Shown: positions 15,842 through 64,000 of the stretch, piece after piece
Layout of the letters: every line of letters begins with the position of its first letter
Position numbering within the stretch: position 1 is the stretch's first letter
From: Squalus acanthias
Lineage: Eukaryota
Reading direction: 5' to 3'
Length of the DNA stretch: 64,000 bases
Assembly (NCBI GenBank): GCA_030390025.1
Contig: CM059431.1
Span: 147,004,001-147,068,000 of the forward strand
Position numbers and translations under genes: made by a program
The notes under the pieces: generated by a model
Seen by the model: the letters and a program-made list of their open reading frames with translations, nothing else
What the model was told of the DNA's origin: nothing
The model's database searches: none

Positions 15842-15859
15842 TATTAGTGCCTCTTGACT

Positions 15860-16626: not shown

Positions 16627-16726
16627 GATGGATTAATTAGTATCTCAGGTTCCCTTCTACCGTTTGACTCGTAGCCGTCTGTTCCCAAAACTACTCAGAG
16701 CGTGGAGCAGGTCCAAATGATTAAAT

Positions 16727-19665: not shown

Positions 19666-20235
19666 TGTTGTAGGGGCTAATCGGAGCCTTAAGCGGACTA
19701 ACCATGAAGGAGAGTCGACGCGCTACCCGACTTAGCCCGACTGAGCAATAAAACTCAAACACCAATTTACACGGTTAAATGCGGGAGTACACTTTATTCA
19801 GAGCGCTCTGGGAGAGAATTGATGCACCCACGTGCAGTCACCGACCTCTCAAATAAGTCACTCTGGGGCACAGTATTTTATACATCCATCATTGATTACA
19901 TCGTGCTCACATGAGCATGTGATAGTCATTAGAATCCAATCAATTTTATGTATACAATTGTTAAGCATAGTAAATCAATTAACGTCAGGATACAGTTGAT
20001 GTGATCAGCCTCGTCTATGTGACAGTGTTATCTCGAGCCCTGTACCAGGATACAGTTGATGTGATCAGCCTCGTCTATGTGACAGTGTTATCTCGAGCCC
20101 TGTATGTTGCAACGTTGTCTGACAAGGCAGACTGCCAATCCATTGCAGAAAAGTCCTGTGTCAGCGAATTTAAAGTTCATTAACTGGATGAGTTTTTCTT
20201 CTCCGACATTTCTTTAATAATTTTCTCCTCCAACA
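19666..20235 (-). repeat. ERV 3' LTR (570 bp; 60-bp tandem duplication in U3; AATAAA at 19793-19798 on minus)
   Basis: By eye, identical to 27169-27678 except for one substitution and the duplication at 19987-20106. Confidence 0.96.
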
Positions 20236-20313
20236 CTCCCTTCTGTTGGTCCGGGGGCACGACCTTCTTGCCCCCAGGAAACCACTGCTCCGTGCCTCTT
20301 CACGGGGTCGACG

Positions 20314-21710
20314 CTACAGCCACTGGCTCATCTCTTGAGGGCTGGCTACCCCGGCGACGGTGTCATGCGTTTCCTCCATGGGCTGGAGATCGGTGTATCC
20401 TTCCTTTTCTTCGTCTTTGAGCAACGGCTCCTCTTCCCGTACGGCGCTGACTGACATTAGCTGGGTTGTGGCAATCTTACAACATGTCTTTAACAAGGTT
20501 ATCAAGCAACATACAGCGACACATATCATCACTATCACAACCATTACGTGCATAATCCAGGGGCCCCATTCTGTTAGCCCCAACCATTCTAGCCATGACT
20601 GTGTCGGTTCCCGGTGTAATTTCTTAATCTCTTCCTTCATGTGATTTACCAAGTTGGTGATGTTTTCCGAACTATCAGGGATGTAAGTACAACACTCTTG
20701 CCCGATCACCGCGCAAGTGCCTCCTTCCTTTGCAAGCAGGTAGTCCAGTGCCATCCTGTTTTGCATGGCCACTGTCCTGAGGGCTACCATTTCTGCGCTT
20801 ATTTCTGCAAGGGCTTCTGTGGTGTCGTTGGCTACCTTCTCGAGAATTTGGGCATTGTTAATGATTTCCCGTGCTAATTTACCCACCCCCCAGTGGGGGA
20901 AGGCGACGGCGAAGAATCGCTCAGTCTCCGTAATTCCTTGCCTGGTTCGATAACAATGGTGCTCCATGAGGGATTTGAGATGGTATACATAAGGCATAAC
21001 GTATCCCAGGTAACATGACCCGGTCCAATCTCTGGGCAGCCATGGGTACGCCTTGTGCCCGCATATAAAATATGTTCCATTGTAGGCCGTCATATCCATG
21101 TTTGCCCGAAAGATAGTGAAACCCATCTGACTATCTGTGGCCCGTCGGGTCCCATTCCACGGTTGGTTAGCAGACCAGTGGTATTAAACCACCAGCTTTC
21201 AAATGCCGTGTTCCCCTCCTCATATGTCACAAAGGTTTGGGTGCAATTACTATTTCCTGCCTCTAGGTTCACCTTCACCCCTCTACTTACACTCCTTGTC
21301 CAACATATTTCCCCGACGGGTCTTCCTACCCCGGTTGTGTTTGTTAGGGCGAAGAAGGGTGGATCTTTACTAGAGTTGTACTTGGGTTTGTAACATCCCT
21401 TAAATTGTTCCAATGGGTACCCTCCACCTCGGAACTCCTCCCTCGTGATGTCATGATAGCTGTTCTGGTCATTAAGCGCAAATTCTGCTAGTTCCGTGAG
21501 ATTCAGGGGTATGGGCCGCAGTGGTATCCCACCCTTACTGTGGATCGGAATATGACTACACACCCAACAGCTACTTTGCCCTGTCTCCTTTACGTATTCA
21601 TACGACATATATACAAAGGTATTCACCTGGAGCTCTCTTCGCTTACGGGAGCCCCTTTCCATTCCCGAAACAATGCATGTTAACGCTATTAAACACAGTG
21701 GTATCCCCAT
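20314..21710 (-). pseudogene. env: ERV envelope, gamma-type, one frameshift between about 21090 and 21185
   Basis: Signal peptide MGIPLCLIALTCIVSG, CWVC motif, ISD MQNRMALDYLLAKEGG, CX6CC (CAVIGQECC), and TM helix WIMHVMVVIVMICVAVCCLITLL. Split over two overlapping frames. Confidence 0.93.
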
Positions 21711-21909
21711 TTTTACTTGGAAGCAGGCACTGTCTATCACCGCGTCGTTGCCGCTTCTGGTAGCACTCTTGTATTAACATACAAACATAAAAACACAGTA
21801 GTTAGTACACCAAATGCAATAAGCCAAAGCACGAATGCAAACAGGTAAGGTAATTGGACATTTACGGGTCGCTTGATCTGTAGGTAAAAGAAACACAAAG
21901 AAGCGCCCA

Positions 21910-24900: not shown

Positions 24901-25469
24901 TTAATGGGATATTGTCGGTGGGGTTTGTGTTCGGGTCCTGGGACGACAATGGGGTCAATCTTAACCATTCCTGTGTCTAACTTATCTTTTGCCCATACTC
25001 CTTGTACCGAGGCACACGTGTCCCCGTACCCATTGGTTTCCACTTGCCAGTCCCGGCTTACCGCTGTAGCCACTCCCACTTTGGTGGTATTATTGGTCAG
25101 ACAGTGCATACTAGTTTTATTCCCGTCCAAGTTTGGCCAAGTTATTTTCTTCTTACCACAATCAATTAATACCTGGTATTCTTTCATTAAGTCATTTCCC
25201 ATTATTGTTCCCTCATTATTCTTACACACGTAAAATCGCATAGGGATGAAAAAGTTATCTATTTCTACCAATTGGGTTGTGCTCAGAAAGGCAGGTGTTT
25301 TATCACCGCCAATCCCTGTGATGTAGACCTTTCTGTCCGTTATCGGGATGGGAAGGTCGGTCACGGATACTGAGGCACCGGTGTCCACTAGCATCTCACA
25401 CGGTCGGCCCCCTACTAGTGCAGACACATACATCCTTCCTTTGTCTCTTTTTACGGGGGCCGCTGACTG
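21910..25469 (-). CDS. pol: ERV pro-pol (PR-RT-tether-RNase H-IN), interrupted only at the A9 run (23622-23630)
   Basis: LVDTGA (PR); LPQGFHNSP and YVDD (RT); FYVDGS...AELVAL...YTDS (RH); HHCC, D-D-E and GPY (IN). In frame with gag after a single TGA. Confidence 0.93.
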
Positions 25470-26804
25470 TCACTGTGTCTCTTTCCACTGTTGATATAGT
25501 CTCTTTTCTTCGGGGGTCATGGTGACGTGGGTCGTCTCAGGTCTGCCATGTTTACTGAAACAAGTGGCCTCAGTATGGCCCTTCTTATTACAGTAAGTAC
25601 ATGTCTTCTTAGCCATACAATCTCTAATAAAATGTCCAGGCTTCCCGCAACCATGACATGCCCCCTTGGGTCCCACTGCCTGTTTTACCGCACTTACACT
25701 TTCCTGTTTAACCTTGACCGTACCTTCCTCTTTGGCTTTTAACCCGTCTACCCCACAAGCCCACTCTACTAGGTCGTCGTAATTCCTGGTTGTTACTACG
25801 CCCATCTTGATGATAGCCTGGTGTGCGGGAGACAAGCCATCTTTAAAGGCCTGAATGAAAGCGGGGTCAGTTCTTGCCGGCCCTGGTTGGCCTGATGACT
25901 CTCCATAAACAATAAACAGCCTTTCTCCATATTCGGAGGCCGCCTCGCCCTTTTGCTGCTTACAGGACGTTATCTTACTCCAATTAGTTGGGGCCTCTCC
26001 TAACACCCGCTGGATTTCTGTTTTAAACAGATTAAAGGGAGCCTGTTGTCGGTCTATTGTATCTGCCAATGGACATTGTTCAGTCCATCGACCGGTCTTA
26101 TAATCCGTATTGGCCTGATTGGGGGTGGTCTGCGTGAGGCGCCATCGGTCGACCGGACATGCTGCCCGGACCAACTGATGAACGTCACGCAGGTGGAGGC
26201 TGTGTCCCAGCCAAACCATATCTAGGTTTGCCCAGAACTTGGTGTTGGCACTTCGTGTTTGTAAGTTCCCCAGGTCTTTCAAAATCTGTTGTCTTTCTCC
26301 CGGGGTAAAAGGCTGAAAATCCGCCCTTGCCCCGGCGGCACCAGGCTGGCCCCTCATTTTAACGGGGGCCGCGAAATATTCTTCTGTTGTATCCCCAACT
26401 GTTTCTTCAGTTGGGGCTGTTGGTCCGGAAAGTCCGTACGGGGGGAGTGGATCTGTGTTACACCCCGTCCACCTTCCGGGACACATTCTACTTTGTTCTT
26501 GATTTATTCCCTCTAGTATTTCTATCTTCTTTTTTAAATCTGCTATTTCTCTGTTTTTGGCCTTCTCAGTCTCTCGGACCTTATCTACTTGCTCGATTAG
26601 TCCCGCCAATTGGTGTACCAAAAGAACTCCCGTTTTCTTGGTTTTCTCCCTTTTTTGCTTACGTACCCACTCTCGTTGTGACTCTAATGACTGGCTAACA
26701 TCCCAGCCATCTTTCTGCATTCTGTCTATCAGCGAACGTCTATCTGTCATGTAACTATTAATAAGGGACCCCGGGGGCCCCATCTTAATGTCCTTACCTG
26801 ACAT
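25470..26804 (-). CDS. gag: ERV Gag, 444 aa, intact
   Basis: PTAP and LPPY late-domain-like motifs, MHR-like CKQQKGEAASEYGERL, and two CCHC knuckles (CHGCGKPGHFIRDC, CTYCNKKGHTEATC). Confidence 0.94.
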   Translation of the reverse strand: MSGKDIKMGPPGSLINSYMTDRRSLIDRMQKDGWDVSQSLESQREWVRKQKREKTKKTGVLLVHQLAGLIEQVDKVRETEKAKNREIADLKKKIEILEGINQEQSRMCPGRWTGCNTDPLPPYGLSGPTAPTEETVGDTTEEYFAAPVKMRGQPGAAGARADFQPFTPGERQQILKDLGNLQTRSANTKFWANLDMVWLGHSLHLRDVHQLVRAACPVDRWRLTQTTPNQANTDYKTGRWTEQCPLADTIDRQQAPFNLFKTEIQRVLGEAPTNWSKITSCKQQKGEAASEYGERLFIVYGESSGQPGPARTDPAFIQAFKDGLSPAHQAIIKMGVVTTRNYDDLVEWACGVDGLKAKEEGTVKVKQESVSAVKQAVGPKGACHGCGKPGHFIRDCMAKKTCTYCNKKGHTEATCFSKHGRPETTHVTMTPEEKRLYQQWKETQ

Positions 26805-27148
26805 CGCCCGTCCGCTCTCCGATCACACTCTCCAGTAAACACTCACCGCCTCTCTTCACTCTCCCGTCCTTCTGGACTCGTGAACTCGTTTACCGATGTG
26901 TCTAGTTGCCTGGAGTTCCGGATCTCGCAAGCACCGCCCGCAGACTTTATCACAGGTTTTACTCTGTACCTTTAACCTACGGCCCAAAAATTTGACAGTG
27001 TAATGCAGAATACTCACAACGGTTCCCCCTCTGCCTTCCGAGAATACCCGGACCAAAAACCCCTATAAAGTGTACTCTCGCAAATCCCCTCAGATTCTTT
27101 CGGTTACTTGAGCCCGTTAACACTTGATCAGGGTGTCGGTACTCAGTA

Positions 27149-27166
27149 ACCCTGCTCGCAGCGCCA
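27149..27166 (-). promoter_or_regulatory. ERV primer-binding site, tRNA-Ser-like (TGGCGCTGCGAGCAGGGT)
   Basis: Starts with TGG 2 nt inside the 5' LTR. Its complement ACCCTGCTCGCAGCGCCA closely matches vertebrate tRNA-Ser 3' ends as I recall them. Confidence 0.8.
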
Positions 27167-27168
27167 AT

Positions 27169-27678
27169 TGTTGTAGGGGCTAATCGGAGCCTTAAGCGGA
27201 CTAACCGTGAAGGAGAGTCGACGCGCTACCCGACTTAGCCCGACTGAGCAATAAAACTCAAACACCAATTTACACGGTTAAATGCGGGAGTACACTTTAT
27301 TCAGAGCGCTCTGGGAGAGAATTGATGCACCCACGTGCAGTCACCGACCTCTCAAATAAGTCACTCTGGGGCACAGTATTTTATACATCCATCATTGATT
27401 ACATCGTGCTCACATGAGCATGTGATAGTCATTAGAATCCAATCAATTTTATGTATACAATTGTTAAGCATAGTAAATCAATTAACGTCAGGATACAGTT
27501 GATGTGATCAGCCTCGTCTATGTGACAGTGTTATCTCGAGCCCTGTATGTTGCAACGTTGTCTGACAAGGCAGACTGCCAATCCATTGCAGAAAAGTCCT
27601 GTGTCAGCGAATTTAAAGTTCATTAACTGGATGAGTTTTTCTTCTCCGACATTTCTTTAATAATTTTCTCCTCCAACA
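27169..27678 (-). repeat. ERV 5' LTR (510 bp; TATAAAA at 27379-27385 on minus)
   Basis: TG...CA termini; matches the 3' LTR. Confidence 0.96.
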
Positions 27679-30450
27679 GTAGGGTCATCGCAGTTAAAAT
27701 TAGAGTAGGGTCATCACCAGTAATATTAGAGTACGATCATCACTAGTACTGTTAGAGTAGGGTCAAAACCAGTAATGATAGAGTAGGGTCACCACCAGTA
27801 ATGATAAAGTAGGGTCATCAGCAGTAATGTTATTGTAGGGTCAACACCAGTAATGATAGAGTAGGGTCACCACCAGTAATGTTAGAGTAGCGTCACCATC
27901 AAACATTTTAGAGTAGTTTCACCAACAGTAATGATAAAGTAGGGTCATCAGCAGTAATGTTATTGTAGGGTCACCACCAAAAATGTTAGAGTAGGGTCAC
28001 CACCAGTAATGTTAGAGTAGCGTCACCATCAATCATTTTAGAGTAGGGTCACCAACAGTAATGAAGAAGTAGGGTCAGCACCAGTAATGTTAGAGTAGGG
28101 TCACCACCAGTAATGTTAGAGTAGCGACACCATCAATAATTTTAGAGTAGGGTCACCAACAGTAATGAAGAAGTAGGGTCACCACCAGTAATGATAGAGT
28201 AGGGTCATCACCAGTAATATTGGAATATAATCACTGCCAATAATTTTAGAGTAGAGACACCGCCAGTAATGATAGAGAAGTGTCTTCAACAGTAATATTA
28301 GAGTAGCGTCATCACCAGTAATATTAGAATAGAATCACCGCCAATAATGTTAGAGTAGAGACACTACCAGTAATGTTAGAGTCGGGTCATCACCAGTAAC
28401 GTAAGCGTAGGGTCACCGACAGTAATGTTACAGTAGGGTCATCACCAGTAATGATAGTGTGGGTTCACAACCAGTAATGAAAGAGTCGGGTCACCACCAG
28501 TAACGTTAGTTTAGGGTCACCACTAGTAATGTTAGAGTAGGGTCACCACCATTAATGTTAGATTAGGGTCACCAAAAGTAATGATAGAGTAGGCTCGCCA
28601 CCAGTAATGTTAGAGTAGAATGACCACCAGTAATGATATAGTAGAGTCATCACCAGAAATGTTACTGTAGGGTCACCAATAGTAATGTCAGTATAGGGTC
28701 ACCAATAGTAATGTTAGATTAGGGTCACCAGCTGTAATGTTAGTGTAGTGTCAGCACCAGTAATGGTAGTGTCGAGTCACCACCAGTAATGTTAGGGTAG
28801 GGTCGCCACCAGTAATGTTAGAGTAGGGTCACCAACAGTAGTGTTAGAGTAGGGTCACCACCAGTAATGTTAGAGTAGGGTCATCACCAGAATGTTAGGA
28901 TCGACTCACCACCTGTAATGATAGAGTAGGGCCACCATCAGTAATGTTAGAGTCAGGTCATCACCATTAATGTTAGAATATGGTCACAACCAGTAATCAA
29001 AGAATAGGATCACCGCCATTAATATTAGTGTACTATCCCCACCTTAATGTTAGTGTAGGGTCAACACCAATAATATTTGAATAGGATTACCGCCAGTAAT
29101 GATAGGATAGGGCCAACACCATTAATGTTAGCGTATAGTTACCATCAGTAAAGTTAGAGTGGGTCGCCGCCAAATAGTTAGATTATTATCACCAACATGT
29201 TAGAATAGGATTAACACTATTAATTTTACAGTGCGATCACCAGCAGTAATGTTAGAGTACAGTACTCATCAGTAACGTCAGAGTATGGAGACCACATGCA
29301 ATGTTAGAGTAGATGCACCACCAATAATATTGGAGTAATGTCACCACCACTAATATTAGATTCGGGTCACCATCAGTCTTAGATTAGAATAAACACAAGT
29401 AATATTACAGTACGATTGCTGCCATTAACGTTTTAGTAGTGTCAATATCAGTAAAGTTAGAATAGATTTACCATCACTAATGTTAGTGCGGGTCACGACT
29501 ATTGATGTTAAATTAACATCAACAGCAGAAATGTTAGAATAGATTCATCGCAAGTAATGTTAGAGTAGATTCACCACAGTAATGTTAGAGTAGGTTGTAC
29601 ACCAGAAATGTTACAGCAGGGTCACCCCCAGTTATAATAGCGTAAGTTCACCTTCAACAATGATAGAGTACAGTCACCACCAGTAATGTTAGAGTTGGGT
29701 CTTCACCATAATGTTAAAGTCGGTTCACCCACCTGTAATTATAGAGAAGGTAACCACCAGTAATGTTAGAGTAGAGTCACCACCAGTAATGTTAGAGTGG
29801 GTTCACCCACCTGTAATGATAGAGTAGGGTAACCACCAGTAATATTGGACTAGGGTCACCATCAGTAATGTTAGAATAGAATCACGACCAGTAATGTTGG
29901 GGTAGGGTCACCACCAGTAATGTTAGAGTAGAAACACCACCAGTAAGGATAGATTGGGGCCACCATCATTAATGATAGGGTAAGGTCATAAGCATTTATG
30001 TTAGAGTAGGGTCACCACCAGTAATGTTTGAATAGGATCACCGCCAGTAAATTCAGATTAGTATCACCACTAGTTATGTTAGTGTAGGGTCATCACCAAT
30101 AATATTTGAATAGGATTAGCGCCAGTAATGTTACGATAGGGCCAACACAATTAATGTTAGCCTATAGCTACCATAAGTAACGTTAAAGTGGGATCACCAT
30201 CAGTAATGTTAGAGTAGGGCATCACCAGTAATGTTCGAGTGTGGTCAGAATTTGTAATGCTAGATTAATGTCACCACCGGTAATGTTACAGTAGCGTCCC
30301 CACTGCTAATGTTGGAGTGGATTCACCACCAGTAATGTTAGATTAACATCACCACCATGAATGTTAGAATATGGTCATTACTGATAGTGTTAGAATAGGA
30401 TCATCACCAGCCATGTTCGAGCTGAGTCACCACTAGTAATCATTACAGTA
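27679..30450. repeat. 26-bp satellite, right part
   Basis: Same unit as 16950-19665. Confidence 0.95.
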
Positions 30451-30845: not shown

Positions 30846-32554
30846 ATGATACGGCCAACAATTCTACAGATAAGGGACATTTACTACCATTTGCTCGCAG
30901 CCTTCGGTGTTCCCGGTAAGTCAATGTATCCTGTTGACTAATAGTTGTTGACTATCTCAGTGTTAATGTAACAGATTCCGAGAATGTCCTCATTGCAGAA
31001 TCATTGATCCACCGGGATCAGTCGGTGAATATCAGAGGGAATGAAGCCACTCCGCGCGGCCGCTGAGGCGCTGTTCTGGTCGCTCGATCGTGGGCACCGG
31101 ACGCTCAACCTTCCTCCCTATACTGAGGGAGGGCGAGGCTGATTCACCGGCCCCTCCTACAGTACATAGATCACTAAAGAATGTGTTGCTCATTGCCCAT
31201 AGTAATCATCTGTTTCGCACCTTTGTCCTCTATCTATTTTAAGTTGATAATTCCTGGCACTTCAGCCACCTCCACCCAACACTGGACTTTGGATGGTAAT
31301 TTGAGAAATAACTGTTGCTCGCGGAGTTGCTCCCCTCCGCTCGGCAGCGTTTCGAATTAAATTGAACTGTTTTCTCTAAGCTGAATGTATTATTTGAATT
31401 ATATCTTTCCATTAATTGCCGTGAAATTATATTTCATACTTGACTGAAGTTTGCTGCAAGGACGGCGAATTTTCAGTCCCTCGATATTGAACTTTCAATG
31501 AGTTCATTTGTTTAAATAAAGTGTCGTTACCCTCGATTATATTAATGTTAAAAAATCTATGCGCATAACGCTGAATAGGGACAGTACCGAACATTTCCCC
31601 ACAATAAGCTGTGAGCTTTATCCGACTATCCCCGTTACTGACCTCTTCCACCAGTTTCTCACAGCGAACCTACTGACAATCCTGATTCTCTCCAGAGGAA
31701 ACTGCGGCCTTTCCAAATGTATCTCTGTTTACATGGTGGCCATGGCAACAGCAGATCTACTGGTCATGATCATCAGTATATTAGTGAACCGCATTATCAG
31801 TCATCACTTTCCACATTCCTTCCTGTCCTACAATTCCGTCTGTAAGATCATTATGTACATGCAATGTGTCACCCTGTATGTGTCGGTGTGGTTTACAGTC
31901 TCGTTCATATTTGACCGATTTGTAGCTATATCTTGTGAGACGTTTAAAACAAAGTATTGCACAGTGAGAACTGCGGCCGCGATTATAGCAACGGTCTCTG
32001 TCCTGATCTGTGTACAGAGCCTTCCTTTTTGGTTTGCATTTGAACCTGAGAGAATAATTCACAATGTTCACTGGGGTTGCCGTGCCAGAGTGGAGTTTTT
32101 TTCATCGCCTGCAGGTGCAGCATACTCCTGGTTGGAAAGTATTTTGGTTGCTTGGCTTGCTTTTGCTTTGATATTACTATTTAATTGTTTGACAGTCAGA
32201 CGCATTTTAGTGGCCAGTAGAGCCCGCAGGGGACTCCGGGGTCACAGCAGTGAGAATCAGAGCGATCCAGAGATGGAGAACCGAAGGAAATCCATCAGTT
32301 TACTGTTCACTGTATCGGGCAATTTTATACAGTTGTGGCTGAAAGCTATCGTTAGTTTTTTAACTACCAGACTGACAAACACGGCGCAGTATCGAAGCGA
32401 TTATGCAGCCCCTGCCTATATTGCCACTGAAACCGGATATATGCTCATGTATTTGAGCTCCTGTACAAACACATGTATTTATGCAGCTACTCAACCTAAA
32501 TTCAGGGAAGAGCTGAAGAATGTGGTGAAATGGCCTTGCACATTAATTGGTTAA
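30846..32554 (+). CDS. GPR139-like class A GPCR, two exons (30846-30915, 31665-32554), 319 aa
   Basis: Exon 1 MIRPTILQIRDIYYHLLAAFGVP ends at a G|GTAAGT donor, and the acceptor is tttctcacag|CG. The spliced frame is open, with AMATADLLV, FDRFVAI, DPEMENRRKSI and NTCIY motifs. A paralogue, so no symbol is given. Confidence 0.88.
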
Positions 32555-35289: not shown

Positions 35290-36043
35290 TGATTCTCCTG
35301 TCCCTCTTTCTAATTAAATAGTTGTTGTGTTCCCTTGGGTTTCTCTATTTCTAATCAAAGAAATACTGTGTTTCCCTGACATTCCGTGCAGTCTATTTGT
35401 TATTAAACAGTAACTATGCCCCCCTGTGTCCTCCTTCTATCTACATGGTTATTATGTTCCATGAGGCCAGTTTCTAATTAAACCGTTACTGTGTTCTCCT
35501 AAAATTCCTGTTCTCTATTTATAATTAAATAGATAGTTTATTTCCTTAAGTTCCCCCATTCTCTGTTCCTAATCCCCGTGTTCCCCATTTTTAATTAAAC
35601 AGTTACTATGTTCACCTATCCCCCAATCCCCATTTATAATTATACAGTTACTGTGTTCCACTACATTCAACTTTATTCTATTCCTAATTAAAGAGTTACT
35701 GTGTTCCACGACATTCAACTTTATTCTATTCATAATTAAAGAGTTACTGTGTTCCACGACATTCAACTTTATTATTATTCTAATTAAACAGTTACTGTGT
35801 TCATCTAAATCCCCCTCTTCCCCATTTATAATTAAACAAATACTGAGTTCTCCTATATCCACCGTTCCCCATTTATAATCATCAGTTACTGTGTTCCCCT
35901 ATATACTCCGTTCCTCATTTATAATTAAACAGTTACTGTGTTCCCCTATATTCCACTATTCCCCATTTATATTTAAACAGTTACTGTATTCTCCAAAGTT
36001 TCACTGTACTTTATTTGTAATATAACAATGACTGTTTTCCACT
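35290..36043. repeat. AT-rich ~45-48-bp degenerate minisatellite (ataattaaacagttactgtgttcc core); resumes at about 37669-37800
   Basis: ttactgtgttccac occurs at 35648, 35696 and 35744. Confidence 0.85.
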
Positions 36044-36095
36044 AAAATGAGAAGTCGCACAACACCAGGTTATAGACCAACAGATTTATTTAAAA

Positions 36096-36132
36096 TTACA
36101 AGCTTTCGGAGCTGTCGCCCCTTCCTCAGGTA
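36096..36132 (-). ncRNA. Minimal type-I hammerhead ribozyme motif (Penelope left arm)
   Basis: Reverse complement of the motif at 37544-37580. Confidence 0.75.
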
Positions 36133-37543
36133 GAGTAACTGTGAGAGAATCTATCAGAATTCACAGAATATAAACACAGAGAAAATGCATTCAAATCTTT
36201 CCCTACATCAAAGACACACTAAGAGCACAGCCAAGACAATGAGATGTGTCCCAGGGGATCCAACGTGTCAAAACACCTGCTGGCTGCATATCCTCTCCAG
36301 TTGGCTTTGTTTCTTGTGTTTGTTTTTTTAAAAAAAGCTGGAAAGACCGGCAACGATGTCAAGTCACGTTCTGTATCATGACATGAACCCGATATCCCGA
36401 TTAAGGCCATCCTCATGAGTGCGGAACTTGGCTATCAGTTTCTGCTCGATGATTTTGCGTTGTCGTGTATCCCGAAGGCCGCCTTGGAGAACGCTAACCC
36501 GCAGATCCGAGGCTGAATGCCCCTGACTGCTGAAGTGTTCCCCGGCTGGGAGGCAACCCTCCTGCCTGGCGATTGTTGCACGGTGTCCTTTCATACGTTG
36601 TCTCAGTGTCTGCATGGTCTCGCCGATGTACCATGCTCTGGGGCATCCTTTACTGCAACGTATCAGGAAGACAACGTTGGCCGAGTCACATGAGAATGTA
36701 CCATGTACCTGGTGGGTAGTGTCCCCACGTGTGATGATGGTATCTGTGTCCATGATCTGGCATGTCTTGCAGAGGTTGCCATGGCAGGGTTGTGTGGTGT
36801 CGTGGTCGCTGTTCTCCTGAAAGATGGGTAATTTGCTGCAAACGATGGTACTTTTGAGGTTAGGCGGCTGCTTGAAGGCGAGTACTGGAGGCGTGGGGAT
36901 GGCCTTAGCAAGGTGTTCGCCGTCATCGATGACATGTTGAGGGCTGCAAAGAACATGGAACATGGCGTAGTTTCTCCGCTCCGGGGAAGTACTGGCCGAC
37001 GTTGTCTACCTGATACGTTGCAGTAAAGGATGCCCCAGAGCATGGTACATCGGCGAGACCATGCAGACACTGAGACAACGTATGAACGGACACCGCGCAA
37101 CAATCGCCAGGCAGGAGGGTTGCCTCCCAGTCGGGGAACACTTCAGCAGTCAGGGGCATTCAGCCTCGGATCTGCGAGTTAGCGTTCTCCAAGGCGGCCT
37201 TCGGGATTCACGACAACGAAAAATCATCGAGCAGAAACTGATAGCCAAGTTTCGAACTCATGAGGATGGCCTCAATCGGGATATTGGGTTCATGTCACGA
37301 TACAGAACGTGATTTGACATCGTTGCCGGTCTTTCCAGCTTTAAAAAAAAAAACAAACACAAGAAACAAACCCAACTGGAGAGGATATGCAGCCAGCAGG
37401 TGTTTTGACACGTTGGACCCCCTGGGACACATCTCATTGTCTTGGCTGTGCTCGTAGTGTGTCTTTGATGTAGGGAAAGATTTGAATGCATTTTCTCTGT
37501 GTTTATATTCTGTGAATTCTGATAGATTCTCTCACAGTTACTC

Positions 37544-37580
37544 TACCTGAGGAAGGGGCGACAGCTCCGAAAGCTTGTAA
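37544..37580 (+). ncRNA. Minimal type-I hammerhead ribozyme motif (Penelope right arm)
   Basis: tac-CTGAGGA-a-ggggc(gaca)gctcc-GAAA-GCTT-gta: CUGAnGA and GAAA cores, 5-bp helix II, palindromic AGCT helix III, and helix I tac/gta. Confidence 0.78.
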
Positions 37581-37804
37581 TTTTAAATAAATCTGTTGGA
37601 CTATAACCTGGTGTTGTGCGACTTCTCGTTTTTGTCCACCCCAGTCCAACGCCGGCATCTCCACATCATGTTTTCCACTGAAGTCACGTTTATTCTACTT
37701 CTAATTAACAGTTGGCGTATTCTTCTAAATTCGCCTGCTCTGTATTTGGAATTAAAGAGTTACTGTATTATCGGGAATTCCCCTTTGTTCCCTATTTTCC
37801 GTTG

Positions 37805-41490: not shown

Positions 41491-42089
41491 GTTTGATAAA
41501 AGAGATTTCGGTTGTTTTCCGCTGGAAGCCTCAGTAGTTGTGGAGGAGCGCTCCGTGATAACGGGACAGGTTTAATTTTCAGATGTCTCTGAGCTTAGTT
41601 CTGTTCCGATGCCGCCTCTGACCTGCAGTCACAGATATCTGACAGCGGGCACTGGGCTCTCTTGGGCGACTTCTTCCTGAAGTAAGTCTCCAGCTGCCTG
41701 CTTGCCCTGCTGCTCCTCATCATTTCCCTCTTCCTGCTCTACATAGACTCAGCTACAGGGGAAGTTTCAAGAAATCACTCAGCGCCGGTGGTGATGGAGA
41801 AACCGTTCATGAGCTGGAGATAGTAAAAGGCCAAAAACATGGACTCTTCAGAAAGAAAGTTTCCCCACGTGCACAATCCTAATAAAGTGGTTCCAATTGG
41901 AATCGCTCCTGACAACCGCCAACACGCAGCATCTCTTTGGTGGGAGTTTGTGAATCGGAATACGGACGGTAGAGGGGGAAAGTCCAATATTATTTATCTC
42001 CCATTTTCATCCAGTGAGCAGAGCGGGTGCTGGAAATGTTGGATAGTCAGAAAATCAGCGGCAGACATTTCCACCGCATGTTCTGCATC

Positions 42090-42635
42090 GGTCACCTCTT
42101 GTGTAAGTGTCGTGTTTCACCAGTATCGGAGGAGCGCGGTCACACATAGTGGAAGTGCAGTGGTTGCACCAATACCGGAGGAGTTCGCTCATCTCCAGTG
42201 TAAGTGTAGGGGTACCACCAGTACCGGAGGAGTTCGGTCACCTCCAGTGTAAGTGTAGGGTACCACCAGTACCGGAGGAGCTCGGTCACCTCCAGTGTAA
42301 GTGTAGGGTACCACCAGTACCGGAGGAACTCGGTCACCTCCAGTGTAAGTGTAGCGTACCACCAGTAACGGAGGAGCTCGGTCACTTCCCGTGTAATTGT
42401 AGCGGTACCACCATAACCGGAGGAGATCGGTCACTTCCAGTGTAAGTGTAGGGTACCACCAGTATCGGAGGAGCACGGTTACCTCCAGTGTAAGTGTAGG
42501 GTGCCACCAGTAATGGAGGAGCTCGGTCACCTCCAGTGTAAGTGTAGGGTACCACCAGTAACGGAGGAGCTCGGTCACTTCCAGTGTAAGTGTAGGGTAC
42601 CACCAATACCGGAGGAGCTCGGTCACCTTTAATGT
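42090..42635. repeat. 48/49-bp satellite (GTAAGTGTAGGGTACCACCAGTACCGGAGGAGCTCGGTCACCTCCAGT), left part
   Basis: Direct tandem copies; 16-aa periodic ORFs. Confidence 0.93.
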
Positions 42636-42845
42636 AGGGAGAGAGATGGAGTCGGTGGCTACGGAACGGGAATCGTGGCGGGTACCGAACACAATGGCTT
42701 CTGTCTTCCCAAAACTTAGTTGGAGGAGAGTTCTGCTCATCCAGTGCTGGATGTAGGACAAGCAGTGCGACAATTTAGAGACAGTGGAGCTGTCGCGAGA
42801 AGTGGTGGTGAGGTACAGCTGGGTGACGTCAGCGTACATGTTCCC
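42636..42845 (-). mobile_element. L2 LINE RT fragment (inverted)
   Basis: MYADVTQLYL...WMSRTLLQLSFGKTEAIVFG. Confidence 0.85.
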
Positions 42846-42849
42846 CATC

Positions 42850-43809
42850 GGAAATCACATCATCAGTTTCCACATATGCACCTCTCCCGACCCCTCCACC
42901 TTCTCTAAACTGTCACATTGCTTGTCCGACATCCATTACTGGATGAGCAGAACGTTCTTCAAACTAAATGTATGGAAGACCAAATTAATGTTCTTAGTTC
43001 GCCACCACGAGGACCGTTCCCTACCAAAGGACTCCATTCCTCATTCTGGCAAATGTCTGAGGCTGATCCAGGCAGTTTGCAACCTTGTGACATATTTGAC
43101 TTCGATTTGAGCTTCTAACCACATAACCACATCATCACTAAAACCGCTTATTGCCACCTCTGGAACATCCCCCGACCATGACCCTGTCTCAGCTCATCTC
43201 CGGCTGAAACCCTCATCCAAGCTCTTCTTACCTCTAGACTTGTCTATTCCAACGCACTCCTGGCCGGTCTCCCACGTTCAACTTGCCTTAACTTGAGGTC
43301 ATCCAAGACGCTGCTCACCGTCTCCTAACTCGAACTAAGCCCCGTTCACACATTATCCCTGTGCTCGCTGACCAACATTGGCTCCCAGTTAATAAACGCA
43401 TTGATTTTAAAATTCTCATCCTTGTTCTCAATTCGGTGCAACGCCTCGCCCCTCCTTATCTCTGTAATCTCCTCAAGCCCCACAACCCCCGAGATATCTC
43501 TGCTTCTCCAATTCCAGCCTCCTGAGCTTCGCTGATTTCAATCTCTCAAACATTGGCGGCCGTGCCTTCAGCTGCTAAGGCCCTAAGCTCTGAAATTCCA
43601 GCCATAAACCTCGCCGCCTCCCTACTTCTCTTTCGTCCTTTAAGACGCTCGTTAAAACCTGCCTCTTTGATCAAGATTTTGGTTATCTGAACTAATATCT
43701 CCCTGTATTGCTTGGTGTCAATTCTTGTTTGATAACACTCCTGTGAAGCGCGTTGGGAAGTTTTAATAGTTTAAAGGCACCATAAAAAAATCAAGTGTTT
43801 GTTGTTGTT
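42850..43809 (+). mobile_element. L2 LINE 3' fragment
   Basis: SKLSHCLSDIHYWMSRTFFKLNVWKT, SRLxYSNALLAG region, and a (TTG)n tail; homologous to 38440-39346. Confidence 0.87.
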
Positions 43810-45955
43810 AAGTGTAAGGCTACCACTAGTACCGTAGATTCACCATCATCGCTGGTGTAAGTGTAGCGGACCACGTGTACAGGACGAGCTCGTTAACCAC
43901 TCGTGTAAGTGCAGGGGTAACATCGTACTGGAGGAGCAGGTACACTTCTGGTGTATGTGTAAGGTACCACAGGTACTGAAGGAGCACGGTCACTACTAGT
44001 GTAAATGTAGGAATATCACTAGTACCGAGGAGCACTGTTATATCTAGTTTAATTATCCGGGTATCACTAATACAAGAATAACATGCTGACACCTAGTTTA
44101 AGTGTAATGGTACTACTTGTACCGGAGGAGGCTGGTTACCTCTCGTTTAAGTTTACTGGTACCACTAATGTAGAGGAGCACGCTCACCTCTAGTGTTAGT
44201 GTAGGGGTAACACTAGTGTAGGAGGAGCACGGTCACCTCTAGTTTAAGTGTAGGGGTACCACTAGTGTCGTAGGAGCACGGTCAACACTACTGTTAGTGT
44301 AGGGGTACCACTGTTGTAGGATGTGCATGGTCCACACCAGTGTTAGTTTAGGTGTACCACTAGTGTAGAATGTGCATGGTCAACACTACTGTTAGTGTAG
44401 GGGTAACAATGTTGTAGGATGTGCATGGTCCACACCAGTGTTAGTGTAGGGGTACCACTAGTGTAGGATGTGCATGGTCAACACTAGTGTTAGTGTAGTG
44501 GTACCACTATTGTAGGATGTGCATGGTCAACACTAGTGTTAGTGTAGGGGTACCACTAGTGTAGGATGTGCATGGTCAACACTAGTGTTAGTATAGGGGT
44601 ACCACTAGTTTAGGAGGTGCATGGTCCACACTAGTGTTAGTGTAGGGGTACAACTAGTGTAGGATGTGCATGGTCAACACTAGTGTTAGTATAGGGGTAC
44701 CACTAGTTTAGGAGATTCATGGTCCACACTAGTGTTAGTGTAGGGGTACAACGAGTGTAGGAGGAGCCCGGTCAACAGTAGTGCAATTTTATTGATACGA
44801 CTATTCCTGGAGCACCATGCACCAATTTAGTGCAAATGCAGGGTTACCTCCAGTATAAGTATAGTGTACAACTAGATGAGCACTGTCAGCTCTAGTGTCA
44901 GTGTAATGATACCACTAGTAAAGGAGAAGCACTGTCACTGTAAGTGTAAGTGTCAATAGTACAGGAGGTGAATGCTCATATCTAGCATAAATGTACGTAC
45001 AAGTACTAGAAGATCAATGTCCCATATAGTGTCAGTGTCGGTTACCTGAGGAGCAAGGTCACATATAGTGTCAGTGCCGGTTACCTGAGGAGCAAGGTAC
45101 ATTTTGAGTAGCACGTTCACATCAAGCGTATGTTTTGGGGACCACATGTACAGGATGAGCACGGTTACATCTTGTGTAAGTGTAGGGGAATGTCAAGTAC
45201 CGAAGGAGCACTGTCAATCCTAATGTAAATGTATGGAAACCACTGATGCCAGAGGAGCACGGCCACCTCTAGTATAATTTAAGTGATACCACCAGTATCA
45301 GAGGAGCACGGTCACCTTTAGTGCAAGTGTAGGGTACCCATAATACCGGTGATACACAGTCACATCTACAGTCAGTGTAGGGGTCCCACTAGTACCGGAG
45401 GACAGCGTTCACCATTGATGGACGTTTAGTGATACCACTTTTACCGGAGGCTCTTGCACAATCCTAGTGTAAGTGTAGGGGTAACACTGGGACAGGAGGG
45501 ACACGGTCACATCTAGTGTAAGTGTAGGGGTAACACTGGGACAGGAGGGGCACGGTCACATCTAGTGCCAGTGTAGGGGTAACGCTGGGACAGGAGGGGC
45601 ACGGTCACATCTAGTGTAAGTGTTGGGGTCCCACTGGGACAGGCGGGACACGGTCACATCTAGTGTCAGTGTAGTGGTAACACTGGGACGGGAGGGACAC
45701 AGTCACATCTAGTGTCAGCGTTGGGGTACCAATGTACAGGAGGATCACACGCACATCTAGTGTATGAGGTGGTTTCCACGAGTACCGGAGGTGCACTGTC
45801 AATAGCAGCACGTTCAACTCTATTAATGTACTAGTAACTGAGGAGCATGGACACATCTAGCGTAAGTGTACGGTGCCAGTAGTACAGGAGGAGAACTGTC
45901 ACCTCTCACCTAAATGTAGTGTATCACTAGTACGGGAGAAGCACTGTCACCTCAA
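43810..45955. repeat. 48/49-bp satellite, right part with locally homogenised variants
   Basis: Same unit. Sub-blocks at 44200-44770 (gtaggatgtgcatggtcaacactagt) and 45465-45720 (gggacaggagggg). Confidence 0.9.
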
Positions 45956-58295: not shown

Positions 58296-59446
58296 CATTG
58301 TTGTTATCAATGTAAGTTGCAGCATCTAAATTCCATAGAAATCGCAATGGAAGCTTAAAGAAAGTTTAAAAATAAACTAACATTATTTTAAATTAAACGA
58401 CCGTTCATAAAATAAATTTTCTTTCAAATAAATGAAATGAATTACATTAATTGAATTACCTTAAATTAAACTTCTTACAGTTTGTATGTTCAGTTGTTTT
58501 ATTTGACTTTTTCAGTTCAAGGATAATAAATAAATCACTAACATTTATGCCTACTGTTTTTTCGGGATCATTAGACTTGTGGACATCAGCTGTAGGCGTT
58601 GATTTTTTTCTCCGTTAATATAACATAAGATGTATTTAATTACGGCTGAGGTAAAGATCCCTTTACATTCTTCTAGCATTGTGTGGAACAAGAGGCAGAT
58701 TCTAATGTTAAGGACGGCCGTCAGACTCAGGATGGAGCTCTGTAATCCTGCACTAACAGTTTACAACGACAGAACAATCTGCACTGTTATAGAAACAAAT
58801 CCAACGCAATCATCGTGTTCCGACTTATAGATACATGATGGAGAACTTCGGGTGAGTTACATCCCAAATTTTTAACTCTTTCTTTCGACCCGATTATGCA
58901 ATACATTTTAAATAAATATTTACATCTGTTACTGAGTCTAAGGGGTAAAAATTCAGTTGGTTGCGCCTCCCGTTAGCGCCTTAAATGGGCGCTAATGGGG
59001 CGTTAAGGCGCTAACGCCCGGGCGCAGCGCTGTTTGCGCCGCTCGAGAACTTAACTTGAGATTGTGCGGCAGCGCTAAAACTTACCGCTGCGACCACCTG
59101 CGCGCGCAGATTGTGACGTCAGTCCGTGGTGCAACGCCCTTGGGGCGCCCCGGAGCGGAAATTGAGTGGCGCCCCCTGCCTTACCGCCTGGCGCTTCCAA
59201 CGACCGGAAGACTGGAACGTTATCAATCGGTCTGGGGCTGGGGGGGGGCGCTATTTAAAGGGGGCCTCTTCCTGTCTTTTTCTGTGGTCGACATTTATGC
59301 ACCACTCGTTCTGAGAGAGAGAGATTCGGAGAGAGAGAGAGACTTCTACATTGACTCAACGCTTTGTGAGTTAGTTTTGCCTAGTTCATCCTAACTTTGC
59401 TGCTACTTTCGTTGCTGTACCTCATTACTTTTCTGGCAAAGAGAAG

Positions 59447-60607
59447 ATGGGGGCTGCAATGATTGGGGGCGTCGTCCTGCTCCAGCTCAATCGGAGCAGA
59501 GTGAGACGCAGACAGAGAGTGGCAATGATGGCCAGACGGAGGAGGCCCATCAGGCGCATGTACAGGAGAGCTTACCCTCCCAGGGTATATCGTGAACAGC
59601 TCTCCTACATCCACATGTCCGAGGAGCTGTGTTTGCGAAGGCTGCGATTCAGCAAGGAGGTGGTCACTGAGCTCTGCCACCTGCTGCAGCCAGATCTGCA
59701 GCCTCAGCTGAGGTCCAGGACGTCTCTGTCGGTGGCAGTGAAGGTCACAGTGGCCTTGAACTTCTACGCCACTGGCTCATTCCAAGCTGCTGTTGGGGAC
59801 CTCGCCAATATCTCCCAGTTTGCGGTGCATCGCTGCATCCGGCAGGTCACCAATGCCCTCTTCACAAGGAGACGAGACTTCATCTCCTTCCCTATGACCC
59901 CAGACAAGCAGCATGACCGTGCTATGGGCTTTGCGAGGGTAGCGAGCTTCCCCATGGTGCAGGGCGCCATTGACTGCACGCATGTGGCTTTGCGTGCTCC
60001 GCGAGAGAATGCAGAGGAGTTCCGGAACAGAAAGGGGTTCCATTCCTTGAATGTGCAGTTGGTCTGTGACCACAGACAGGTGATTCTCGCTGTCAATGCC
60101 CACTATCCGGGCAGCTGCCACGATGCTTTCATCCTGCGCCAGAGTACTGTGGCAGAAATTTTCGAGGCACCGCATCAGCCAGTCGGTTGGCTTCTGGGGG
60201 ACAAGGGGTACGCATTGAGCACCTGGCTGATGACACCGCTCCGTGCGCCAAACACCCCTGCTGAGCTGCGGTACCAGGAAAGCCAACAAGCAACGAGGAA
60301 CATTATTGAGCGCACAATCGGCGTGCTCAAACAACGATTCCGCTGTCTGGACCATTCCGGAGGAGCCCTGCAGTACTCGCCTGAGCAAGTTTCCAAATTC
60401 GTAGTGGTGTGCTGCATGTTGCACAACATGGCAATCCTCAGGACGCAGCCAATGCCACCAGGCCTTGCAGCACCACAGGAGGAGGAGGAGGAAGAGGAGG
60501 AACAGGCCGAGGACGATGATCAGCAGCAGCACCAAGGCAGGAGGGCGGCCCACAATGGTCAAACTGCAAGGGCCGTCCGTCAACGACTAATAGCAAGCCG
60601 CTTCTAG
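59447..60607 (+). CDS. Harbinger DDE transposase (HARBI1-like family), 386 aa, intact
   Basis: GAIDCTHV, NRKGFHSLNVQLVCD, PGSCHDAFIL, LLGDKGY and RNIIERTIGVLKQRFRCL. TATA-like TATTTAAA at 59252; AATAAA at 60769-60774. Confidence 0.95.
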   Translation: MGAAMIGGVVLLQLNRSRVRRRQRVAMMARRRRPIRRMYRRAYPPRVYREQLSYIHMSEELCLRRLRFSKEVVTELCHLLQPDLQPQLRSRTSLSVAVKVTVALNFYATGSFQAAVGDLANISQFAVHRCIRQVTNALFTRRRDFISFPMTPDKQHDRAMGFARVASFPMVQGAIDCTHVALRAPRENAEEFRNRKGFHSLNVQLVCDHRQVILAVNAHYPGSCHDAFILRQSTVAEIFEAPHQPVGWLLGDKGYALSTWLMTPLRAPNTPAELRYQESQQATRNIIERTIGVLKQRFRCLDHSGGALQYSPEQVSKFVVVCCMLHNMAILRTQPMPPGLAAPQEEEEEEEEQAEDDDQQQHQGRRAAHNGQTARAVRQRLIASRF

Positions 60608-60901
60608 GGCCCCTGCCAGTGCTACAAACACGAATCAACCCAGCACGCAACCCCTAAGCCGGCCAAGGCACCAATAATTCCAACCACCAGCCATGTATAT
60701 TTTGAATACAGAAACTTATTTATTGTACAAACTCTGTGTGTGTCAATTCCTCATGACAAACTCATAGAAATAAACACAAAAAAACAGTCAATAATATAAC
60801 TGGTTCTCACAACCTGGAGATAATGTCCAAAACACTAAACAAAAGTTGGGCCATGAACCTCGGCCTTTAATAAAAAAATGACCAGCATTTTGGCACACCT
60901 C

Positions 60902-62728
60902 CTACTTTTTGCCCTTCGAGGGTGATCTCCTTCCCTTGCGCACTTCCCCCCTTCTAACCCTACTGCTCCTCCGTAATGGGACCTCAGTGGCTGCAGCAAG
61001 GCTGGTGGAAGGCTGCTGCTTGTCAGACCCTGACACTGCAGATGCCCCTGAAGGCCGGCCTCGACCACTTCTGGGCCTGGAGGGCCCGGCTGCAGACTGC
61101 ACCAACTCTGCATGGGCGGCAGCAGTCTGTCCTACAGGCGGTGGCAAGTGCAGTGGAGAAGTGACAGTGTTGGCAGCAGGAATGCTGTCATCGTGAGAGA
61201 GGACAGCAACTCCCTGCTCGCCCGACACACTGGCACTCCCACGGGGCAGCACTTCAGCATCCGGAGCAATTTGCCTGAGAACAGATTGCTGGCCTGCTGC
61301 GGCGCGGTGACAGCCCCGGGGACATGTGCACGAACCATCGAGGATGGCAGCAGTCAGTGCTCGCGTGGCCTCAATCTGAGTCTGCATGAGAGCAGGCTCA
61401 GATGGGTTCCTGGCAGCCAGTGACTGAATTGCAGCAGTAAGCTTTAGTGTGGCATCCGCCTGTGCTACAGCGAAGTGCTCCACACTCCTTGCCAGTGCCT
61501 CAATGCATTCGGGCACCCTTCCCACTGCACCCATGAGCTCAGTGTGCATGACCACCGCCTGGCTGTTCATTTCTGCAATCATCCGCTCCTCCTCTGCGTC
61601 CATTGCATTAGGAGTGTCTGGCATACTCTCCCTCTGGGGAGAAGGCTCCCGTTCTTCCCTCCCCCCCCCCCCCATGGCGTTGCTGCAGCCCGCTGGGTCC
61701 TGGAACTTCACCATCATCAGCCCCTTCCCCCCTGCTCCCCTCCGGGGAAGGCGTGTTCCCAGTGTGGCCATGGGCTTCCTCGGGAGAGGGTGGCACTGAT
61801 GCTCCGGCTTCCTCTTCCTCCTCAGCTGCAGCATCACTCCCAGTGGCAGCTTCAGGGACCATCTCCTCAGCTGGTGAATCACCATCTGAAAGCAGGGAGG
61901 TACAAGAGTGGCTTTAGCGTGAGGACAGGGTGGCAGTAAGGGAGGAATAAGTGCAGCGAGTTAGCAAGTTGGATTGAAAGTGTCAAAGGCTGGTATTGTG
62001 AGGGACAAGTGGAAGGACAGAGGACAAAAAGGTGATGACCTTACCATTGCTGTCCACAACGGGGTCGGCGTCTCCAGTGGCGACGGGACCGATCACCCGG
62101 CTTGCCACAATCCTGTGGACGCGCTCCTCCAGATCGCTGAGGGGTTGCAGCTGAAGCCGCCCTCCACCCGTCCGTTGCTGCTGTCTCCGATTATGAGCCA
62201 GCTTAGCCTGCAAGAAAAAGGACAGCATCTGAGTCAATATACAGCCATGGTCTTGCCTGATGTGCCTCCCATAGGTGAATAGCCCTTACAATATGCAGCC
62301 ATGGTCTTGCCTGATGTGCCTCCCATAGGTGAATAGCCCTTACTGTATGCAAAGTGTGGAATGTGTGTGTGTGTTTGATAAAAGGGCCATAGGTGTTGGA
62401 TGAGTGTTGTGCATTGGGGTTTTAAGACCCTCTGGCCATAGAGTGAGGTTGAGATGGAGGGATGGAGAGGTATTGAGAAAAAGCCACTCACCCTGACGAC
62501 CCGAGTGAGGTCGTTGAACTTTTTGCGGCACTGGACATGGGTCCTGGGCACCATGCTCCTGGAGGAGACGCTCTGAGCCACCTCCCTCCACACTCTTCTG
62601 AACTCGCGTGGCAAAGGCCTCCTGCCACTCTCTGGGAACAGCATGCATCGTCTGCGCTCCACTGCGTCAACCAGAGCATCCAAGGCCCGCTCGGTGAAGC
62701 GATGAGCGCGTTCTCTCACCCTCTCCAT
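60902..62728 (-). CDS. Harbinger Myb/SANT-like DNA-binding protein, 3 exons (62728-62492, 62207-62045, 61885-60902), one frameshift at the C13 run (61661-61673)
   Basis: RFTERALDALV...WREVA...RTHVQCRKKFNDL and RTGGG. Canonical GT-AG junctions in compatible phases. About 460 aa if the run is C12. Confidence 0.87.
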
Positions 62729-64000
62729 TCTTGGCAGCAAAATGGATTACAGGTCTCTCCAGGCTGAGATTCAAGGCTGCAATGAGCAGGGTGTGGCTGG
62801 GGAGCAAGTGGCCCCCCCCGCTTTAAGAAGTGTCCGGCGCCAGTGTGTCTGTGTTACCGCGCTAACTGGCAGCAGCTGCGCTGCGCTCGTGCGCTGAGTT
62901 AGCGCCTCACTCCTAGGCCTTTACGCCTTAAGAGAGGTGTGCAGCGCCTAATTTAGCGCTCCACTCACCTCCCGGGGCGGTAAAAGTGAAGTTTCCTGTC
63001 AGTGCCGATAATTAGCGCCAGGCGCTAATATTTGCGCGCGGACGATATTTGCGCCCAAAATGGGGCGCGACCTAATTTCTACCCCTAAGACTTTATGAGG
63101 TAGGTTTTATCTAAAAGAATTATAAACGGACCCGCAATGCAAATATTGGCACTGCCCAACTTCCTCTAACAGTAAAGTGTCTTCAAACAATGGGAGGCTA
63201 CTTCAAAAGTGTCGGTATTTTATAAATTAGTAATCGGAAAATAGGAAATATTTCAATCATTCCGTGATTTTACTGAACTTTCCTCCGCTTTAGTGAATTC
63301 TGCCGATTGGCAGCGGCGGATTATGCAGCCACACAATTTTCTTTTTCATTATAGTCAATGAAAAGGGAAATTCGGCGGAGTGTATGAGTGGCGCACAGTC
63401 CGCTCCAGCCAGATTTCCGCCCATGCCTAAATTGAAAATGACCTTAGTTTCAGAATATTCAGATTGCATGAATCCCAAATGGACTGATAACTACAGGCAT
63501 GCAGTAGATGGAAGGCACCGCGATAAAAATACAATCCGACTGGGAGAAAAAAAATGCATGCAAGCCAATCAGTTCAACATAAAAATAAACCAACAGAACA
63601 ATTTATATCTGCGGCGCCCATCAATTTCAGAAGGTGTGTAAAGATCGAGCTGACACAGCCTATTTATATGTGTAACCCGTTGCTGTGAATAGAAAAGCGG
63701 AAGCAGTCAGAGTCAGTCCTCTGACTTTCTTCCACATCCTGCAGTGTGAACAGTGGATTTACCCAGTTCGAAGAACAGCTTCGCTTCGACATCTTTCAAC
63801 CTGCAACTCATGTACTGCAGAACAAATTGTAAACAAGTTTCAAACGAGGCACTGAAATTAGCGGGCGGACAAAATGCTAGTTACTTGGCTCGAATCCTCA
63901 TCTCAAGCCGTTACACCGAGAAACGCTCTCAAACCCAGGTCCCCAGTGGTGCTGGACGGAGCTATGAATACACCGCCTTGCACTGGGGATACCCGTTCAA

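Follow-up and report, generated by a model that had tools for sequence, protein, structure and literature searches.

Does the Harbinger transposon near the right end of this stretch represent an element able to move by itself, or one member of a family whose intact copies are to be sought elsewhere? The window, i.e. the whole stretch of 64,000 nucleotides (nt) analysed, corresponds to positions 147,004,001 to 147,068,000 of contig CM059431.1 in the Squalus acanthias assembly GCA_030390025.1. The initial annotation described positions 58935-63092 of the window as a complete, potentially active two-component Harbinger. By inspection of the window the element itself was found to span 58942-63085, 4,144 bp; the wider interval adds the target flanks. 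It is probably a full-length copy of a very abundant, Nuwa-type two-gene Harbinger family; the copy would have lost its full-length helper protein as a G run lengthened and would need a helper supplied in trans. There is nothing exceptional about the copy at 58942-63085, one of very many members and one that is decaying early.

The extent of the element was determined from its terminal inverted repeats (TIRs) and from assembled contigs of public sequencing runs. The element stretch was present wholly or partly in 20 of the 24 run rows listed, from 11 studies, and the contigs of four of these runs (X1, X3, X6 and X17) were compared with the window; such contigs show presence, not absence. The features at the two ends are the following.

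58935..58938, plus strand: AGTC, which forms the left half of the target-flank palindrome and is the reverse complement of 63089-63092
58939..58941, plus strand: left target-site duplication TAA, taken from the sequence, its nature as a duplication presumed
58942..58953, plus strand: left TIR GGGGTAAAAATT, matching the right end at 11 of 12 positions; contig depth rises here
63074..63085, minus strand: right TIR, GGGGTAGAAATT as read on the minus strand; an X6 contig exits the window directly behind 63085
63086..63092, plus strand: right duplication TAA and target flank GACT, from the sequence

The TIRs are imperfect and 12 nt long. GGGGTAAAAATT at 58942 and AATTTCTACCCC ending at 63085 are identical at 11 of the 12 positions (GGGGTARAAATT), and the likeness drops off past position 12. 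The trinucleotide TAA at 58939-58941 and 63086-63088 stands within AGTC-TAA-GACT, where the flank palindrome is continuous for 4 bp. The TIRs and the TAA within its palindromic target were thus recovered as previously described; the target-site duplication we infer from the filled site alone. The boundaries were backed independently by the contigs, as the depth was high in every interior bin and fell outside the element in all four runs. Loose contig ends were detected in X6 at 58940, 63085 and 63093. In two other contigs the right end was followed by TAAGACT and then by divergence (X6 at 63093, X1 at 63092). The core C|TNA|G fits the insertion at 58942-63085, and TAAG was present in two of the three other right flanks seen and absent from the third. 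No second copy of the element and no end of a matching miniature inverted-repeat transposable element (MITE) was found within the 64-kb window.

Two side observations concern the same boundaries. An X1 contig joins 63092 to 58942, so that the right end with TAAGACT is followed by 4 letters and then by a left end, which suggests two copies inserted head to tail. Directly to the right of the element there is a short repeat at about 63240-63425, which is possibly a MITE; the contig depth is raised over it, and one end resembles GGGCGGAAAT.

The first of the two genes encodes the transposase.

59252..59259, plus strand: TATA-like TATTTAAA upstream of the transposase, a candidate by motif only
59447..60607, plus strand: transposase open reading frame (ORF), 386 amino acids (aa), DDE_Tnp_4 (PF13359, E=5e-38)

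The transposase ORF was intact, as the initial annotation had stated, with D176, D226, D252 and E288 all kept. D176, D252 and E288 show the DD35E spacing, and an HD motif is located at 225-226; from what is known of the family, we take D252 to be the second catalytic aspartate. The best homolog, from a cartilaginous fish, was 65% identical. PF13359 was detected in all 120 transposase homologs listed, and the top 65 were named cartilaginous-fish proteins. The catalytic glutamate E288 has been lost in many annotated shark homologs. In the AlphaFold model (mean predicted local distance difference test score of 82) D176 falls within a strand, D252 follows directly on a strand and E288 is part of a helix. 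This placement agrees with the pattern given for PHIS transposases (PMC4482050). The structural and metagenomic searches were largely negative: the PDB sequence search gave one chance match only (E=0.43), and the fold search gave no structure at E<=0.001, with weak rows of DDE transposases or integrases of which the best had E=4e-3. No relative of the transposase was found among 595 pattern matches in metagenomes, and all six terminus-pattern matches there were chance 19-mers.

The second gene, the Myb/SANT helper, is convergent to the transposase gene.

62492..62728, minus strand: exon 1 of the Myb-like gene, Myb/SANT trihelix domain (PF13873, E=3.5e-9)
62235..62351, unstranded: 54-bp tandem duplication in intron 1
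62045..62207, minus strand: exon 2, 56% identity over 34 aa to homolog P0006 (E=1e-8)
60902..61885, minus strand: exon 3 with an acidic linker, a helical C-terminal region and a basic tail; homologs P0122, P0123, P0126 and P0132
61661..61673, minus strand: run of 13 G (C13 on the plus strand), frame-shifting, with a premature stop at 61610-61608

The three-exon structure proposed in the initial annotation was upheld. The introns are of the GT-AG type with phases 0 and 1, P0122 aligns over all three exons, and exons 1 and 2 are continuous in P0006, P0122 and P0128. A full HMMER scan found 11 helper homologs. Alignment A2 excludes two of these, P0125 and P0131, which resemble helical-repeat proteins of unrelated origin; P0128, P0129 and P0130 were omitted from it as well. 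By the word-index search, exon 1 had one homolog among 158 candidates and the C-terminal helper ORF had none among 8,000 candidates. P0121 gave no significant match with the C-terminal ORF.

The homologs P0122, P0123, P0126 and P0132 follow the upstream frame up to 61665-61671 and the downstream frame thereafter, and the C13 run is therefore the lesion. It was the only frame-breaking lesion found in the two genes, as had been claimed for the Myb gene. As assembled, the product stops after 225 of about 460 aa and its conserved C-terminal half is missing, including the basic tail, which may serve as a nuclear signal. Run lengths of 9, 12 or 15 would open the frame to 459-461 aa. The helical C-terminal region is also about 45 residues shorter than in all six homologs of alignment A2, the pairwise gaps being smaller for two of them. 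Because an X6 contig across the region has only the 4-base gap, this shortening belongs to the family as a whole and does not represent damage to the copy.

That 4-base gap corresponds to an in-frame allele, C9 at 61661, which was detected in 13 contigs of X1, eight of X3 and three of X6 and in none of X17. It made up all the X6 depth at 61661 and 11-12% of the summed depth in X1 and X3. As C9 was found in three of the four runs, intact copies of the family probably exist elsewhere. One-base deletions at 61661 were absent from the 12 indel rows listed.

Long-read assemblies often err in the length of homopolymers, and the C13 run could accordingly be an error in a fully intact autonomous element. 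With this would agree that neither gene has any other frame-breaking lesion and that the X6 pieces differ from the copy at so few positions (26 of 3,957 nt in the eight pieces listed). However, a real copy-specific expansion fits better than a one-base slip, because the in-frame allele is four bases shorter and not one. The runs at 59240 and 62812 also differ in length among the contigs, and slippage is therefore genuine in the family; moreover, even an intact copy would be no proof of activity. We regard the assembly error as rather unlikely and are reasonably confident of a true frameshift in the copy at 58942-63085.

A genuine run might in turn have a function, as a slippage switch: the Myb protein of frameshifted copies would retain DNA binding only, occupy the subterminal sites and so damp the family in a dominant-negative manner. 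The stop lies in the last exon, leaving the trihelix and exon 2 whole, and last-exon stops usually escape nonsense-mediated decay. In contrast, the homologs have just two residues at the site and no long run, so the run is not conserved, and ordinary neutral slippage suffices to explain it. Such a switch is considered very unlikely.

The two genes share a 3' spacer with several candidate poly(A) signals.

60608..60901, unstranded: shared 3' spacer; plus-strand AATAAA at 60769 and 60869, minus-strand AATAAA at 60724-60719 and ATTAAA at 60871-60866, all candidate signals

When the 294-nt spacer was shuffled 5,000 times by mononucleotides, AATAAA appeared on both strands in only 76 shuffles, so that its presence on both strands is above chance. 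The initial annotation had deduced overlapping 3' ends from the hexamers at plus 60769 and minus 60719-60724. Both hexamers are present, but the second plus AATAAA (60869) and the minus ATTAAA had been missed. The latter is followed by a GU-rich tract, and together with plus 60769 it gives transcripts without overlap. Overlap is thus not implied, because the four hexamers allow a non-overlapping combination, and it was rejected as the necessary reading; overlapping 3' ends of both genes are possible as one of several combinations.

A repeated subterminal motif was revealed behind both ends, a new observation that had been missed in the initial annotation.

58973..59254, unstranded: left subterminal array, eight sites within one mismatch of TTAGCGCC, candidate Myb-protein sites
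62858..63055, unstranded: right subterminal array, seven sites within one mismatch of TTAGCGCC

Six exact copies of TTAGCGCC and 15 within one mismatch were counted; all of them lie no farther than about 310 nt from an end, and the 3.6-kb interior is free of them. The commonest 7-mer occurred nine times, compared with at most seven in 300 shuffles (0 of 300 reached nine, with correction for the choice of motif). At 59071 the letter carried by the family contigs makes the motif perfect. The GCGCTAA motif is probably the binding site of the Myb protein.

The abundance of the family was evaluated from the same contigs. The median depth of 21 interior bins was about 770-fold (X1) and 2,000-fold (X3) that of seven flank bins; the ratios are qualitative, as contig depth gives no copy number and is therefore read only as "very abundant". 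In X6, with 0.14 Mb assembled, the element was covered and its flanks were uncovered. Organism labels A and B held 0.82 and 0.71 of the words of the element, and five more labels (C-G) held 0.42-0.45. The family is very abundant and fairly homogeneous, with sharp ends. Separately, the nearly constant share in labels C-G would equal about 97.6% identity if differences were spread evenly, in agreement with either an older burst common to the labels or a horizontal spread.

These data also bear on the possibility that the locus is no transposon but a pair of domesticated host genes of the HARBI1/NAIF1 kind. Databases do call the homologs "putative nuclease HARBI1". Nevertheless, the locus has TIRs and a duplication, the high depth is confined to the element, other flanks adjoin it in other contigs, and the Myb gene is frameshifted. 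The single-copy domesticated reading was refuted by the multi-copy evidence, and domestication is accordingly taken as extremely improbable.

The initial annotation had named copy identity as a check of activity. The family was near-identical to the copy in X6. Of the substitution rows listed for the element, 27 in number, eight are positions at which at least 80% of the depth in all four runs differed from the copy; only one of these eight involves loss of a CpG. If all arose after the insertion, at least eight substitutions correspond to about 2.8 million generations, given the 7e-10 mutations per base and generation of the epaulette shark, a different shark (PMC10587355). They could instead mark a minor lineage.

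It was considered whether the family moves in the germ line today from intact copies elsewhere, with the insertion at 58942-63085 being recent and polymorphic. Both genes are very abundant, an in-frame helper allele exists, contigs from a second organism label are about 99.3% identical to the copy, and the catalytic glutamate lost in many annotated shark homologs is kept here. On the other side stand the substitutions relative to the majority with the age calculated from them (PMC10587355), and the near-identity across organism labels, which suggests that the family had spread by about the time these separated. The five further labels with 0.42-0.45 of the words also oppose it. No empty-site joint was found among the 15 joints listed, in contigs which cannot show absence. 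An identity of about 99% is in a shark no proof of current activity, and at shark mutation rates the eight or more substitutions relative to the family majority are not recent. Present-day movement is therefore possible but doubtful, and it is unlikely that unmodified copies with both genes intact are transposing today into an extended AGTC|TAA|GACT-like palindrome. We infer that the expansion of the family falls in recent evolutionary time. As to expression, no dataset with the element among the public run rows listed was recorded as RNA, and no splice joints were found among the rows listed for X17, which is only guessed to be RNA and whose contigs extend into introns.

Several observations weigh against the explanation preferred here, a full-length copy of a Nuwa-type family with a helper broken by the lengthened G run. 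One X6 right flank reads AAGAGG, a misfit to TNA|G, and a left flank in X6 can be read in more than one way; because these stand beside two flanks with TAAGACT, the few flanks suggest that C|TAA|G is a preference more than a strict site. The TIR is 12 nt (starting GGGG, in one copy), compared with 13-46 bp in the NuwaII group (PMC4482050). C9 is not demonstrably the majority allele in organism A, given its 11-12% of the depth in X1 and X3. The C13 run was compared with contigs only, and a true C12 would be in frame. Finally, the helper is presumed to need its C-terminal half.

With these reservations, the family probably works as follows. By analogy with Harbinger3_DR, the zebrafish element, the Myb/SANT protein would bind the GCGCTAA repeats behind both ends, and would also bind the transposase and carry it into the nucleus. 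The DDE transposase would then cut at the short GGGG termini and insert the element into C|TNA|G with a 3-bp duplication, the chemistry being that of Harbinger3_DR. This model of binding, import, excision and 3-bp duplication is drawn from work on Harbinger3_DR and mPing (PMC9710019, PMC9392472, PMC13668399). The lengthening of the G run presumably cost the copy its full-length helper; since the helper is truncated at 225 aa, the copy would move only with a helper from another copy, while it may still supply transposase. In a complex prediction, run without alignments, the transposase (residues 30-345) and the C-terminal helper part (residues 15-135) gave a score of 0.00, which counts neither for nor against an interaction. 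That the copy is a candidate active element is not supported, since its Myb protein of 225 aa, as assembled, has lost the conserved C-terminal half. Structurally, the anatomy of a complete two-component Harbinger with both genes holds, with the helper frame broken as assembled.

The rest of the window contains other repeats and one receptor-like frame. An endogenous retrovirus on the minus strand at 19666-27678, with a 4-bp duplication GTAG, has near-identical long terminal repeats (LTRs; one mismatch in 379 nt and none in 190), the left one with a 60-bp tandem duplication. Its domains are Gag, protease and reverse transcriptase, ribonuclease H and integrase, and a TLV_coat env, with pol and env each split over two ORFs. 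The retrovirus is inserted within a 26-bp tandem array of about 205 units (16955-19665 and 27678-30440). A single open frame of 344 aa at 31520-32554 on the plus strand carries a 7tm_1 domain of the rhodopsin-family G protein-coupled receptors (E=1.5e-20). Decayed gag/pol pieces resembling an LTR retrotransposon lie at 12444-16632 on the minus strand, with RVT_1 at 14256-14867. At 5513-10061 a unit of about 1.3 kb is duplicated in tandem, at about 89% identity. The inverted pair 36041-36682 / 36994-37635 (642 nt, 96% identity) overlaps a 209-aa ORF with no Pfam match, which we take to resemble the endonuclease end of a Penelope-type element. Minisatellite arrays are found at 1-1602, 2942-3588, 35580-35991 and 42088-45764, with periods of 21, 39, 48 and 48-49.

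How does the shark family compare with known systems? In the broad PIF/Harbinger (two-ORF PHIS) sense, the element has a DDE_Tnp_4 transposase with its triad, a Myb/SANT gene, and TIRs with a 3-bp duplication. It is interspersed, with the depth confined to the element and the flanks diverging at the termini. In an autonomous copy both ORFs are intact, whereas here the helper, as assembled, stops at 225 aa. The core C|TAA|G is the published signature of NuwaII, described from turtle, Xenopus, bony fish and amphioxus (PMC4482050). With NuwaII of the PHIS superfamily, e.g. Harbinger-n_CPB of the painted turtle and Harbinger-2_BF of amphioxus, the shark copy shares C|TNA|G at its own site, a TIR start of GG, the DDE_Tnp_4 and Myb/SANT ORFs and a length of about 4-5 kb. 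The helper of about 460 aa is longer than the 154-395 aa listed for NuwaII (PMC4482050). A Nuwa-type placement appears to be the best explanation. In the same paper PHIS elements were stated to be absent from sharks (PMC4482050); the present family would add cartilaginous fishes to the group.

The framing of an intact vertebrate Harbinger as a rarity was too strong, as 269 fully intact Harbinger-Snek copies were reported in one Laticauda colubrina assembly (PMC8437027), and both ORFs are intact in 22 families of NuwaII (PMC4482050). Teleost Harbinger elements are transcribed (PMC9179366), Harbinger-type repeats have been annotated in a shark assembly (PMC12498223), and Spy, from a different PHIS group, is available as a tool that is active in its natural form (PMC11304231). 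In the literature covered by titles and the starts of abstracts, with most subscription papers outside the coverage, no description of this shark family or of an unmodified, cell-active vertebrate Harbinger was found. One survey from 2024 dealt with 130 DNA transposons in human cells and may bear on active vertebrate Harbingers. The term "Harbinger" is nowhere mentioned in PMC4255032.

The animal Harbinger biochemistry in the covered literature rests on one reconstructed zebrafish element, Harbinger3_DR. Like the shark family, it has two proteins, a palindromic target and a repeated subterminal motif; in zebrafish both proteins are needed and the motif is bound by the Myb-like protein (Sinzelle et al. 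2008, as cited in PMC3016246, PMC9710019, PMC9392472). That motif is 9 bp long (as cited in PMC9710019), and the candidate here is 7-8 bp. Harbinger3_DR differs in its target, AAACACCWGGTCTTT with a CWG core, and was active only after reconstruction (PMC3016246, PMC9710019, PMC9392472). Activity data exist for Harbinger3_DR, whereas the shark family is known here from its sequence. The family, and not the copy at 58942-63085, is a reasonable candidate for assays. It is a practical source for a test in cells, because its transposase is intact, an in-frame helper allele occurs naturally, a candidate binding motif is at hand and the target is palindromic. If intact copies were active, they would represent a natively active vertebrate two-component C|TNA|G Harbinger, a sequence-selective vector obtained without reconstruction and a handle on the assembly of Myb helper, GCGCTAA arrays and transposase; the slipped copies might then act as DNA-binding-only dampers.

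The coelacanth Harbinger likewise looks young in a slowly evolving fish genome and was proposed to be still accumulating; its expression was detected in a transgenic cell line (Smith et al. 2012, as cited in PMC5381603 and PMC9179366). Harbinger-Snek of the sea kraits resembles the shark family in its massive two-gene expansion with intact beside broken copies, possibly still mobile (PMC8437027). It differs in its horizontal transfer 15-25 million years ago, in its share of 8-12% of the genome and in its mapped RNA (PMC8437027). Unlike the horizontally gained Harbinger-Snek, the shark family has its closest homologs in other cartilaginous fishes.

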